In this document: piece by piece, positions 1 through 6,000 of the stretch
Layout: each line of letters begins with the position of its first letter
Numbering within the stretch: the first letter of the stretch is position 1
Assembly: GCF_003334305.1 (NCBI RefSeq)
Contig: NZ_QOWS01000002.1
DNA: 64,000 nucleotides
Strand: one strand, 5' to 3'
Source: Escherichia coli
Lineage (GTDB): Bacteria; Pseudomonadota; Gammaproteobacteria; Enterobacterales; Enterobacteriaceae
Program-made: the position numbers

Positions 1-3000
1 CGCAGGCCGATATCAAAATCTATCACGACAGTTTTCTTTCCCTTCTGGGCCAAACCAGTGGCGATGGCCGCGCTGGAGGTTGTCTTACCAACACCCCCTT
101 TGCCCGAAGTAACAACAATAATGCGTGCCATAGAAATTCCTTGTTAAAAAGGGATCAATTTAACGGTTGAACGGTCAAAGCGTTTTCGACTAACTGCAGT
201 CGCGCCGCTTTGCCATAAAATTCTGCTGGGATTTGATCACTCAGCCAGTATTCACCTGCGATGGACACCAGTTCCGCCATCAGGTTCGTACAAAATATTT
301 GCGTTTCCCGGTCACCACTTGCCCCTGCAAGCGCACGACCGCGCATCATGCCATAGACATGAATGTTCCCATCGGCAATCAATTCGGCCCCAGCGCTAAC
401 GTGGCTTGTAACAATCAGATCACATTGTGGAGCATAAATACGCTGACCGGAACGCACCGGGGTATCTATTAAACGCGTTTTTGTGACCGGCGTTGTATTT
501 TGCGCTGGAGCCTGTGGTGCGGGAGCTGGACGCGGCGCTTTTTCCTTTCCTTCCGTCAGGATAGGCAGCCCCATCTTTTCAATTTCGGCTTTAAGTTGCG
601 CATCTTTGCAGCCACTTACGCCAATAACCCGCAAACCGGTTGCCGAAACCGCCTTATGCATCGCTGACCAGTTTACCGGGTCTTCCAGTGCACTGACGTT
701 GAGTACAACGGGGGCATGTTTTAAAAATGCGGGGGCCTGAGCGATTTTGTCTTCCAGCGCCTGATGGATAACCTTAGGTTCTGCCTCATGCAGATGAACC
801 ACAGATAAAGTGAAGCTACTGCCTTTAAGCTCGATTGGCGTGTTTGACATCCTGGCCTTACTCAATTAGCTATTAATCATCGCCAGCGCGCGATGATGTT
901 CCGAAGACTATAAGGCATGTTATAGTCTGGATTATATTGAGGCAAGTCACCCTCCCATTTATTCAGAGTAAAAGTCTATTCTGTGATAAATGGCGCTGAT
1001 TCATAGCTTAAAAAATACCCTTGTCAATCAACCCATTGCCGTCGTACTTTTGATTGTTCTTATTTACGCTTCCTTTTTCCGCACCCTAATCGTGACAGCA
1101 TCTCCAGACCTGTTTAAATATCCAGTATTGAGGCAAGTGTATTTTTTCACCACGCCAGGCTTTCTTAACTTTCCATTTTTTGCGGCATCATTAAAGAACA
1201 GATACCCGTTATCTTAATATCCGCCACAGAATTGCTCTATCATAGAAACCGCAGAAGACGTCTGATACTTCTGTCAGGTCATCGTAACTCGTCCAGGTCA
1301 GCGGTTTTGATTACGGATTGATGATGAAATGAGCATAAGTGTTGTACGGTTGGATTATCAGGATGTGCTATGAATATGATGCGTATTTTTTATATCGGAT
1401 TGTCAGGTGTGGGGATGATGTTCTCATCAATGGCGTCTGGACATGACGCTGGCGGACTTCAATCTCCGGCGTGCGGCGTTGTTTGCGACCCGTATATTTG
1501 TGTGAACTCAGATGGTATTTCCCCAGAGTTAACAAGGAAATATCTCGGCGAAAAAGCCGCTGAAAACTTACAATCATTACAAGGCTACGATCCCAGCGAA
1601 TTTACATTCGCTAACGGTGTATTTTGCGATGTTAAAGAAAAATTATGTCGTGATGATCGTTATTTTGGTGTGGATGGTAAGCGGAGTGGAAAAATCAATC
1701 AAATCACCACAAAGATGTTATTTATGTGTCGTGAGTGATGCCTTGTTTACATTATGTTCTATTCGGCATTGTCTGCTATTCGTCATTAACCTCTTGAGCG
1801 ACAGAGAGGAGTGGGGCGTTAACGTTTATGACGGGGAGAGTCCCCGTCGGTTGACATTTACTTAATTTGAATATCGACGTTATATTTTTTAGTTTTGTTT
1901 TTACGGGCGTCGTTTCGGGTTTGCAGCACTCGCAGCTCATATTTGCCAGAAGCAGGGAGTGAGTATTGTCCGTGACTATCGAGTTCTGGTGAATATCTGG
2001 ATAAATCAACTGAATCATCGATTCCTGGCCCGAAGAGGTAAGTATCAGCGCCTTCATTAGAGATACTCACATGCACTTTCTGACCTTTTTTGGCATAGAA
2101 GGTATATGTATCGTAATCGTATCCCTTTATTTCGCCGGAGTACTGAGCGCTGCTATGGCCTTTGCTGAACTCAACATTGACATTCTTACCCGCAGCAAAG
2201 CTCGTGGAGGTTAGCAGTGCAAGCAGCAATACAGCCTTACTGATGCTCTTGATTTTCATTGGTAGTCTCCTGTTCAGAATGAGTACGATGAACTGTTATA
2301 ATATAACAATCCCTTACGGGAGAATTCCAGTGGCTTTTCTGCGTTCGGTAAAATCCCGGCGCGGCATTTTTTGCCGGGGGGATTACTTATAAAGGGGCAT
2401 GGACTCAACAAACCGCAGAAATCTACAGCTGGCTGGCTTGTGGCGCGGGTTTCATTGATGTTAGCTTATGCCAAAACCTGGCATCTTAAAGAGTAAAAGT
2501 ATGTTTTGTGTGATTTATCGAAGCAGCAAGCGTGACCAGACCTATTTATATGTCGAAAAAAAAGACGATTTTTCGCGTGTTCCTGAGGAACTGATGAAAG
2601 GTTTTGGTCAGCCTCAGTTAGCGATGATTCTGCCGCTGGATGGGCGCAAGAAACTGGTCAATGCTGATATTGAAAAGGTTAAACTGGCATTAACCGAGCA
2701 AGGTTACTATTTGCAGTTACCGCCACCACCCGAAGATTTGCTGAAGCAACATCTTTCCGTCATGGGGCAGAAAACAGACGACACTAACAAATAACCGATA
2801 TCCGGCGGTGGCATTATCTTTGTCGGCGCGGGTTTTCATATCCACGATAAGGTGAGGGGAACGTTATGTATCAACATCACAACTGGCAAGGTGCGCTGCT
2901 GGATTATCCGGTGAGTAAAGTAGTCTGTGTTGGCAGTAACTATGCCAAACATATTAAAGAGATGGGCAGCGCAGTGCCCGAAGAGCCAGTGCTGTTTATT

Positions 3001-6000
3001 AAACCAGAAACGGCACTGTGCGATCTGCGGCAGCCATTGGCGATCCCATCCGATTTCGGTTCAGTTCATCATGAAGTCGAACTGGCGGTGTTGATTGGCG
3101 CGACGCTGCGTCAGGCAACGGAAGAGCATGTCCGCAAAGCCATTGCCGGTTACGGCGTGGCGCTTGATCTGACATTGCGTGATGTTCAGGGAAAAATGAA
3201 GAAAGCCGGGCAGCCGTGGGAAAAGGCTAAAGCGTTTGATAACTCTTGTCCGCTTTCCGGGTTTATCCCCGCGGCGGAATTTACCGGCGATCCACAAAAT
3301 ACAACGCTGGGCCTGAGCGTAAACGGCGAACAACGCCAGCAAGGTACGACTGCGGACATGATCCATAAAATCGTTCCGTTGATCGCTTATATGAGCAAGT
3401 TTTTTACCCTCAAGGCCGGTGACGTTGTGTTGACAGGCACGCCTGATGGCGTCGGCCCGTTGCAAAGCGGTGATGAGCTGACAGTCACTTTCGATGGGCA
3501 TTCTTTGACAACTCGCGTTTTGTAATACTTTTTGCCGCCTGAAAGCGGCGGCAAAACTTGCATCGCTGTGCCAGACTGGTTATAAGGTGCGTTTTAACGT
3601 AATGGCGGAACACCTGATGAGCGATGTACCTTTCTGGCAAAGTAAAACCCTGGACGAAATGAGCGATGCGGAATGGGAGTCGTTGTGTGATGGTTGCGGT
3701 CAGTGTTGCCTGCATAAACTGATGGATGAAGACACCGACGAAATCTACTTCACTAACGTCGCCTGTCGCCAGCTCAATATTAAAACTTGTCAATGTCGGA
3801 ACTACGAACGTCGTTTCGAGTTTGAACCCGACTGCATTAAATTAACCCGTGAAAATCTGCCAACATTCGAATGGCTGCCAATGACCTGCGCTTATCGTTT
3901 GCTGGCGGAAGGTAAAGATTTACCTGCGTGGCATCCGCTACTTACTGGTTCGAAAGCGGCAATGCATGGTGAACGTATCTCTGTGCGTCATATCGCAGTG
4001 AAAGAATCAGAAGTGATTGACTGGCAGGATCATATCTTAAATAAACCTGACTGGGCGCAGTGATAAATTTAATAGATGTTGATGGGGGCTTTCTTAATAT
4101 ACGTCTGGATGCTCGCCATTTCGTAGCCCTGTTTTTGAAAGCGCTCTGTCATAATGAGAGTTACCCGATACCTTATTATCAACAGGTAACTCTCAATCTT
4201 TAAAAAACGTCTGTGTTTTTAAATGTGATAAACCTTATACCTTGAGTACATGGAGAGAATAATCGCTTATCAGACTTCAGGTACCTCAAAGAGTGTCTTT
4301 TTACCGTGTCTTTTCTGATACTCATTACAGGTGTTAATCATTTTTTTTGCCGCTTCTTTTAGCAAAGAAAGCATTAAATCATCATAATCAACATAGAATC
4401 TGGTTGTTTCAGTTTCCGTTTTTATCTCCCCGATGGCGGCTATTTCGGTGGTTAATTTCAATTTGGCGGCATCGATATCTTTATTCGCTTGTTTAACCGT
4501 GTTAGACAGGGTGGTAAAGAAATTCTGCACAGATTTTAACTTGTTCTTCAATTCTGGAATCAGTTTCCCTTCAACTACGCCCGCAGCAATAGAATAGGAA
4601 ATGATTAATCCAAATGGACCGGCGACGACACCGGCTGCGGCACCGGCATACGCTTCCTTCCTGATTTTATCTACCTGTGACTGGAAAAGCTGCTTTTTTC
4701 TGAAAAATCATTGGTTAACTGGCTATCTAACGCCAGCAGTTTCCCGGAAGCGTTGTTGAAACTTTGTGAGCTTACCAGCAGGGATTTTTGCGCTTCATTC
4801 AGCTTCGTGATGCCGTCATCCAGTACCTTAATGAGAATGTCTTTCTGGGCGGATGCTTTCTTCTCATTGTACTCATCAAATAGAAAAATATACGCTGCGA
4901 GCAATTGCGTCGCAACACCACACCATTCATACACTGTTTGGGTTGCTTCAAAATACTTATCCTGGCTATCCATAAGTAAGGTTTTAATATCGCCGACTAA
5001 AACGGAGGCTGCCTGTGAATACTCCTGTTTAAAGCGACTTAACTCTTTTATGGTTTCATCAAAGGTCTGCCAGGGGATGACCTGATCGAGATATTTATTA
5101 TAAAGATCTAATGCTCCATCTGCAGTTTCGATTGCGTTTTTAACTACTTCTACCGTTTTATCTGCAACGATTTCAGTCATAATCATTCGCCTCTTTAAAT
5201 ATATAAATTGTAATGAAACTCCTGTTTTACAACTATTAATAAATTTTACTTCATCTAATTCATAGTTAGCCGGGCGGGATGCGTCAATGTCTTTATTTCT
5301 ATTAATATGATAAATATCAAACAATGTTTAATGTCATTATGGCGAATGCTTCTATTCTATTTTTTTGCCGGGTGATATTTTTCATTTCTGCTGGATGAGC
5401 GTCGTCGCCAGAAGGCCACGTGAGCACAGGATAAGAGAACGAAAAATCAGCAGTCTATGCAGCGACAAATATTGATAGCCTGAATCAGTATTGATCTGCT
5501 GGCAAGAACAGACTACTGTATATAAAAACAGTATAACTTCAGGCAGATTATTATGTTGTTTATCAAGCCTGCGGATCTCCGCGAAATTGTGACTTTTCCG
5601 CTATTTAGCGATCTTGTTCAGTGTGGCTTTCCTTCACCGGCAGCAGATTACGTTGAACAGCGCATCGATCTGAATCAACTGTTGATCCAGCATCCCAGCG
5701 CGACTTACTTCGTCAAAGCAAGTGGTGATTCTATGATTGATGGTGGAATTAGTGACGGTGATTTACTGATTGTCGATAGCGCTATTACCGCCAGCCATGG
5801 TGATATTGTCATCGCTGCTGTTGACGGCGAGTTTACGGTGAAAAAATTGCAACTACGCCCGACGGTACAGCTTATTCCCATGAACAGTGCGTACTCGCCC
5901 ATTACCATCAGTAGCGAAGATACGCTGGATGTCTTTGGTGTGGTGATCCACGTCGTTAAGGCGATGCGCTGATGTTTGCTCTCTGTGATGTAAACGCGTT

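Follow-up and report, generated by a model that had tools for sequence, protein, structure and literature searches.

Co-transcription of ycgL, ycgM and ycgN in Escherichia coli probably reflects gene-order history rather than a shared pathway

We analysed a 64,000-nucleotide (nt) stretch of Escherichia coli contig NZ_QOWS01000002.1 (assembly GCF_003334305.1; this whole stretch is called the window, and positions count from its first letter), focusing on three neighbouring plus-strand genes, ycgL, ycgM and ycgN. According to published transcript data, the three genes form a single transcription unit, and ycgN is additionally transcribed alone. As an operon of the E. coli core genome, the cluster is ordinary and already known, and its genes are annotated. 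An original prediction, made from the sequence, had proposed it as a candidate small metabolic module. We consider it probable (roughly 0.65) that this real operon was assembled by the history of its gene order and does not encode a pathway. A primary transcript from about 2472 spans all three genes, with further 5' ends at about 2383-2396, and a conserved internal promoter gives ycgN a separate transcript. The ycgM product repairs enol-oxaloacetate by itself, next to a small cysteine protein (YcgN) and a small alpha/beta protein (YcgL). In this reading, the ancestral gammaproteobacterial order would have been rnd-ycgL-ycgN, and ycgM would have landed between ycgL and ycgN in the Enterobacterales and two relatives.

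Open reading frames (ORFs) on the plus strand span 2468-2794 (108 amino acids), 2866-3525 (219 amino acids) and 3587/3602-4063. The gaps between the genes are 71 nt (ycgL-ycgM, 2795-2865) and 76 nt (ycgM-ycgN, 3526-3601), in agreement with the original prediction; the latter becomes 91 nt if the ycgN start is taken at 3617. The three ORFs are real core E. coli genes and not chance ORFs, because their NCBIfam and Pfam matches are strong, the block is core to the species and the proteins are near-identical to those of K-12. YcgM matched NF007967 with 463.7 bits (cut-off 201, residues 1-219 of 219), YcgN matched NF003498 with 329 bits (cut-off 256), and YcgL, a small alpha/beta protein, matched the whole Pfam model PF05166 (3e-33) and PDB entry 2h7a (1e-68). 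Using megablast with 2300-4200 as query, the 1.9-kb block was found with at least 95% identity in 5422 of the 5426 complete E. coli genomes, which annotate it as YcgL-domain protein, ycgM and ycgN. The region is colinear with K-12; YcgL carries the change Q73L and YcgM the change S149G, while YcgN is unchanged. None of the three proteins matched a PADLOC defence model.

Published K-12 data were placed on the window by subtracting 1225213 from NC_000913.3 positions or 1224436 from U00096.2 positions; the U00096.2-derived upstream positions are good to about 1 nt, as that stretch carries two 1-nt indels relative to K-12. SMRT-Cappable-seq, which captures full-length primary transcripts, lists an operon b1179/b1180/b1181 (Supplementary Data 2 of that study) that starts at the site given in Table 1. 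The operon was scored as 'novel' there because RegulonDB kept the three genes apart, and it has been on record since a 2018 data set. The directional RNA-seq of Li et al. 2013 yielded assembled b1179 b1180 b1181 transcripts under several conditions, with tricistronic 5' ends at window positions 2383-2385, near a start site listed at 2396. Longer ycgJ-ycgL-ycgM-ycgN transcripts were assembled as well. Assembled transcripts end near 4202 (U00096.2 1228638), and a stem-loop in the convergent ycgN-hlyE spacer probably marks where the unit ends. Term-seq of K-12 gave no 3' end in either intergenic gap, and our scan of the plus strand detected no terminator-like site between the three genes. Taken together, the three-gene transcripts and the absence of a terminator-like site between the genes bear out the single transcription unit that had been proposed from the short gaps.

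A second start within the unit serves ycgN. The SMRT-Cappable-seq table contains a b1181-only operon starting at 1228804 (window 3591), and Li et al. 2013 report a further 5' end at U00096.2 1228024 (window 3588). Directly upstream lies a sigma-70-type promoter that is strongly conserved: in an alignment of 12 enterobacterial genera, the -35 and -10 hexamers and most of the spacer are invariant. Hence, with regard to the separate promoters and terminators that the original prediction had taken as a sign of independent genes, ycgN does have its own start behind a conserved promoter, but no 3' end maps to the gaps. With this conserved promoter of its own, ycgN is unlikely to be silenced in ycgM knock-outs. 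Within the promoter spacer, at 3571-3579, lies the perfect palindrome CCAGACTGG, which is invariant or nearly so in the 12 genera; it may be a candidate regulator binding site, and no known motif was assigned to it. Directly 3' of the ycgM stop codon, the minimum-free-energy fold contains a hairpin with a 10-bp stem, which is kept in 11 of the 12 genera while the loop varies. We rejected this hairpin as an intrinsic terminator: a U-tract is found on neither strand, the terminator scan did not score it and Term-seq mapped no 3' end to it. It may act as a pause site or RNA-stabilising element.

The older view, in which RegulonDB listed b1179, b1180 and b1181 as separate operons, would make the genes three independently transcribed neighbours and the long transcripts inconsequential low-level read-through. 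The separate start and conserved promoter of ycgN and the conserved hairpin after ycgM would fit such an arrangement, although that hairpin lacks a U-tract and a mapped 3' end. Shimada 2014 likewise defined an operon 'ycgLM' only, with the hexamers TTCAGA and TATAAT in the pliG-ycgL spacer as its constitutive RpoD promoter; no mapped start site fits this promoter-like sequence. A weak, non-Rho-dependent Term-seq 3' end within ycgM (K-12 position 1228243, window 3030, about 164 nt into the gene) also points in this direction. However, no ycgM-only start site was reported by SMRT-Cappable-seq, the 71-nt gap between ycgL and ycgM contains neither a promoter-like nor a terminator-like site in our scans, and two independent data sets recover three-gene transcripts, in several conditions. 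We therefore see only a slender chance that the genes are transcribed independently. Across the cluster, our scan yielded no more promoter-like matches than in shuffled sequence.

If the genes are co-transcribed, do they share a function? YcgM was originally predicted to be a FAH-fold enzyme, and this is confirmed by its NF007967 match and by its match to PDB entry 1nr9 (protein YcgM, 2e-147); human FAHD1 structures matched at about 1e-55. The statement that no pathway had been assigned is outdated for ycgM. FAHD enzymes, including purified E. coli YcgM with a kcat/Km of 5.95e6, are oxaloacetate tautomerases (Zmuda et al. 2024, PMC10825186), and K-12 RefSeq names the ycgM product 'oxaloacetate tautomerase'. 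Enol-oxaloacetate, which arises as a by-product of succinate dehydrogenase and inhibits it, is turned back into keto-oxaloacetate by the tautomerase. Deletion of ycgM (Keio) led to an sdhA-dependent phenotype of poor growth with small colonies and acetate overflow, and plasmid-borne ycgM alone complemented the growth defect (PMC10825186). That is, YcgM is a stand-alone metabolite-repair enzyme, the function of which was published in 2024 for the K-12 protein. The YcgM of the window is identical to this assayed protein save S149G; it has the FAH fold common to the FAHD1/OAT1 group (human FAHD1, yeast Fmp41, Bacillus subtilis YisK and E. coli YcgM), from which it shows no substantive difference. 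In contrast to the FAH enzymes HpaG/HpcE, which sit in aromatic-catabolism clusters, ycgM has no catabolic partner genes nearby. Most literature matches to the gene names concern the ycgM/ycgN genes of Bacillus (proline utilisation), which are unrelated namesakes and were set aside.

We then asked how far the gene order extends beyond E. coli, using 80 YcgN loci (one genome per species, centred on YcgN and drawn as the best-scoring of at least 597 matches). Neighbours such as YcgL, YcgM and MinCDE were located by tblastn with named queries; greedy ORF picking was dropped, as it split the YcgN cluster and gave antisense artefacts in GC-rich loci. In Enterobacterales, ycgM adjoins ycgN in all 22 loci, with gaps of 37-147 nt, and ycgL lies upstream in 21, the remaining locus being cut by the contig end. 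Among the 28 loci of other Gammaproteobacteria, ycgM is found beside ycgN only twice, in Oceanisphaera and in one metagenome-assembled genome, both close relatives, while ycgL occurs in 16, upstream within 2.1 kb and on the same strand. The 30 loci from Alphaproteobacteria and others have neither ycgM beside ycgN (0/30) nor ycgL within the 8-kb flanks (0/30). The ycgM-ycgN adjacency is thereby restricted to 24 of the 80 loci, all from Enterobacterales or these two gammaproteobacterial relatives, and 56 of the 58 non-enterobacterial loci lack a FAH gene within 8 kb of ycgN, even at E <=0.05. The co-occurrence expected of a metabolic module, surveyed here as gene neighbourhood, does not extend to distant lineages, and this is where the module proposal loses its ground.

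Outside the Enterobacterales, a different linkage emerges. Directly abutting ycgL and ycgN genes were observed in Orbaceae, Marinobacter and one gammaproteobacterial metagenome-assembled genome. In the Marinobacter locus (L037, 7594-8441), the ycgN ORF begins at 7995, before the ycgL frame has closed at 7998; the two overlap by 4 nt, which points to translational coupling. The rnd gene ends just upstream. Elsewhere ycgL and ycgN are separated by a non-coding gap (Shewanella), by mltB (Psychromonas) or by two genes (Pseudomonas). The gene for RNase D, rnd (TIGR01388, 458 bits), directly precedes ycgL in Pseudomonas, Marinobacter and the same gammaproteobacterial metagenome-assembled genome. In five Enterobacterales loci, ycgL and ycgM are parted by an MltB-family gene. 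The linkage that is older and more widespread looks like rnd-ycgL-ycgN, with ycgM as a lineage-specific insert, as mltB is elsewhere; the direction of this rearrangement is read from the gene orders. The rnd-ycgL-ycgN string of other Gammaproteobacteria and the E. coli unit have orthologous ycgL and ycgN genes that agree in order and strand. In E. coli, however, rnd is not nearby, ycgM is interposed and a 1.5-kb ycgJ-pliG insertion precedes ycgL. Because only Enterobacterales and the two relatives have ycgM interposed in this way, the co-transcription of the three genes most likely reflects the landing site of ycgM, not shared chemistry.

Some observations weigh against an operon assembled by gene-order history. 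The ycgM-ycgN adjacency is unbroken in all 24 loci that have it, whereas that of ycgL and ycgM is broken in five; selection could act to keep the former pair together. In Alphaproteobacteria, YcgN is also encoded directly upstream of, or fused to, a DHDPS-family enzyme, and FAH enzymes too act on 2-oxo acids, which makes shared chemistry possible. Moreover, the long-read operon was defined by SMRT-Cappable-seq without a mapped 3' end, and the 80 loci are a YcgN-centred selection with one genome per species, the best of at least 597 matches. In alphaproteobacterial loci, ycgN is followed by an M48/YgjP-like gene or a DHDPS-family gene, the latter within about 160 nt 3' of ycgN in nine loci. Four representative proteins are YcgN-DHDPS fusions, one of which was confirmed as a single 475-amino-acid ORF; its DHDPS part shares 35% identity with the form encoded by a separate neighbouring gene. 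The DHDPS-family (DapA-like) protein beside or fused to YcgN scored below every curated equivalog cut-off.

In a true functional module, YcgN (with a metal or Fe-S cluster) and YcgL would help, control or broaden the oxaloacetate/2-oxo-acid chemistry of YcgM; for example, they might act as redox sensors or deal with another damaged metabolite of a related kind. Co-transcription of the three genes, the close spacing of ycgM and ycgN in the 24 loci and the alphaproteobacterial DHDPS neighbours and fusions would all be expected of such a module. Yet YcgM needs no partner for its high activity, ycgM by itself complements the mutant, FAHD enzymes also occur in eukaryotes and archaea (PMC10825186) whereas all YcgN relatives found are proteobacterial, and ycgN, which has its own conserved promoter, is without a FAH gene in the neighbourhood of nearly all non-enterobacterial loci, as counted above. 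The neighbours of YcgN also vary by lineage, comprising YcgL, MltB, a nitroreductase, M48/YgjP-like proteins, CobB and DHDPS-like proteins. On balance, we regard the module as distinctly unlikely. Similarly doubtful, and a little more so, is the idea that YcgN is a metal or Fe-S accessory of 2-oxo-acid enzymes that was recruited twice, to the FAHD tautomerase in Enterobacterales and to a DHDPS-family, aldolase-like enzyme in Alphaproteobacteria. If true, the E. coli operon would be half of an undescribed metabolite-repair or sensing pair.

Alternatively, ycgL and ycgN could work as a pair in RNA metabolism, in connection with RNase D (rnd), with ycgM as an unrelated passenger. This is compatible with assembly of the operon by gene-order history and goes further on function; we consider it unlikely. 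The contiguous and co-directional rnd-ycgL-ycgN genes of Marinobacter and the gammaproteobacterial metagenome-assembled genome argue for it, as does the overlap of the ycgL and ycgN ORFs in Marinobacter; in Pseudomonas, rnd and ycgL are contiguous in nine of nine loci, with ycgN about 2 kb downstream. But Alphaproteobacteria have YcgN with no YcgL gene in the 8-kb flanks (0/30 loci), ycgN lacks a nearby ycgL also in Vibrionaceae, Aeromonas, Actinobacillus and Methylomagnum, and no biochemical clue ties YcgL or YcgN to RNA. We still favour gene-order history as the origin of the E. coli operon, and synteny suggests that ycgL and ycgN should be studied as a pair linked to rnd rather than via ycgM. 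In all eight Vibrionaceae loci, a CxxC-rich protein of about 95-105 amino acids without an NCBIfam match is encoded divergently (minus strand), about 80-640 nt upstream of ycgN.

The description of the genes as poorly characterised no longer applies to ycgM but holds for YcgL and YcgN: a full-text literature search found no functional study of either E. coli protein. Both remain conserved E. coli proteins without a role, and are relevant to research on proteins of unknown function. YcgN does contain the CxxCxxCC motif originally pointed out (CDGCGQCC). It reads LCDGCGQCC, that is CX2CX2CC, and Pfam PF03692 (CxxCxxCC) matched at 4e-11 over model positions 2-85 of 85. In 31 diverse homologues with 38-53% identity to the E. 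coli protein, eight cysteines (C24, C27, C30, C31, C50, C60, C73 and C91) are invariant, together with Y63, R66, P88, Y93, H106 and L108. By analogy, YcgN is probably a metal-binding or Fe-S protein. Among characterised proteins, only the flagellin lysine methyltransferase FliB has a comparable motif, CX4CX3CC, which binds [4Fe-4S]; the authors of the FliB study themselves compare this motif with the CX2CX2CC of PF03692 (PMC8598068). FliB and YcgN share eight conserved cysteines and, in the N-terminal part, a cysteine motif that closes with CC. They differ in motif spacing (CX4CX3CC versus CX2CX2CC), YcgN comprises only 148 amino acids, and there is no evidence of S-adenosylmethionine (SAM) binding in YcgN. 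With this spacing, and no matching model outside the YcgN family, we rejected YcgN as a FliB-type [4Fe-4S] SAM methyltransferase.

Although YcgN shares the domain of the PF03692 'putative zinc- or iron-chelating' proteins over nearly the whole model, it belongs to a tight family of its own, with 11 NCBIfam equivalog models and a conserved C-terminal WHPL region; the family comprises about 146 representative clusters at E <=1e-30. No NCBIfam model outside this family matched YcgN even at E <=10. The AlphaFold model of YcgN is of high predicted quality (predicted local distance difference test, pLDDT, 92.6; predicted template-modelling score, pTM, 0.83). A structure search with this model returned only its own family in AFDB50 and no PDB match, and a sequence search against PDB chains gave nothing at E <=1. 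Searches of the PDB and the literature found no member of the YcgN sub-family with a solved structure or known function. For YcgL, a published study described a PPP motif with weak dependence on elongation factor P (EF-P) in vitro and up-regulation in efp mutants; in the window, the polyproline LPPPP is encoded at 2737-2748.

The start codons of ycgL and ycgN deserve correction. K-12 annotation places them at 2468 (108 amino acids) and 3602 (153 amino acids), RefSeq at 2501 (97 amino acids) and 3617 (148 amino acids). ATG 2501 and its ribosome-binding region AGAGTAAAA are kept in an alignment of 15 enterobacterial genera, unlike the 33 nt upstream, and YcgL orthologues are mostly 89-97 amino acids long. 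ATG 3617 is invariant in the spacer alignment of 12 genera, ATG 3602 is not, and the YcgN model NF003498 aligns from residue 1 of the 148-amino-acid form (model positions 1-148). These observations favour the shorter forms, and the mapped transcript start at 2472 is downstream of ATG 2468. The true starts are probably 2501 and 3617; for annotation, this means that both genes probably begin further downstream than in the K-12 record.

Table 1. Features of the ycgL-ycgM-ycgN unit in the window.
Feature	Position	Strand	Basis
ycgL (b1179), YcgL-domain protein, 97 amino acids	2501..2794	+	PF05166, PDB 2h7a
ycgM (b1180), FAH-family oxaloacetate tautomerase (OAT1), 219 amino acids	2866..3525	+	NF007967, PDB 1nr9
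ycgN (b1181), YcgN-family cysteine-cluster protein, 148 amino acids	3617..4063	+	NF003498, PF03692
Promoter-like TTCAGA-18-TATAAT, pliG-ycgL spacer	2273..2302	+	consensus scan, 10/12 with TG
Alternative upstream 5' ends of ycgLMN	2383..2396	+	Li et al. 2013, U00096.2 1226819-1226832
Tricistronic transcript start	2472	+	SMRT-Cappable-seq 1227685; 2398-2510 identical to K-12
Hairpin TTTTGCCGCC-TGAAAGC-GGCGGCAAAA, 10 bp, directly 3' of ycgM stop	3530..3556	+	minimum-free-energy fold
Internal ycgN promoter: -35 TTGCAT 3558-3563, 17-nt spacer, -10 TATAAG 3581-3586, start about 3588-3591	3558..3591	+	
Stem-loop, ycgN-hlyE convergent spacer	4155..4194	+	fold z-score -2.2 for 4055-4200

The genes around the unit are ordered minE-minD-minC (minus strand), ycgJ (plus), pliG (minus), ycgL-ycgM-ycgN (plus), hlyE (minus), umuDC (plus) and dsbB (minus). 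The neighbour hlyE (4270-5324, minus strand), originally taken for a silent gene, is, in this strain, a frameshifted pseudogene: its reading frame is broken into the ORFs 4270-4551 and 4671-5324, and the RefSeq annotation of an identical strain labels it 'frameshifted'. On the other side of the unit, ycgJ and pliG are carried on an insertion of about 1.5 kb (about 976-2489) between minC and ycgL. The insertion is flanked by an 11-bp direct repeat, AGAGTAAAAGT, at 965-975 and 2490-2500 (0 expected by chance), and E. albertii and most Enterobacterales have a divergent minC-ycgL junction without this interruption. As the repeat AGAGTAAAAGT is the ribosome-binding region of ycgL, the ancestral ycgL promoter region now faces ycgJ. 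The 11 extra codons of the K-12 ycgL annotation fall within inserted DNA. The gene for the 19-amino-acid K-12 small protein YmgN (b4816), which reads MAFAELNIDILTRSKARGG, is intact at 2155-2214 on the plus strand, antisense inside pliG. An Rfam scan of 800-5500 detected no RNA family in the cluster; its sole match was the known small RNA C0299 (RF00119, 112.5 bits), located at 5415-5493 on the plus strand between hlyE and umuD.

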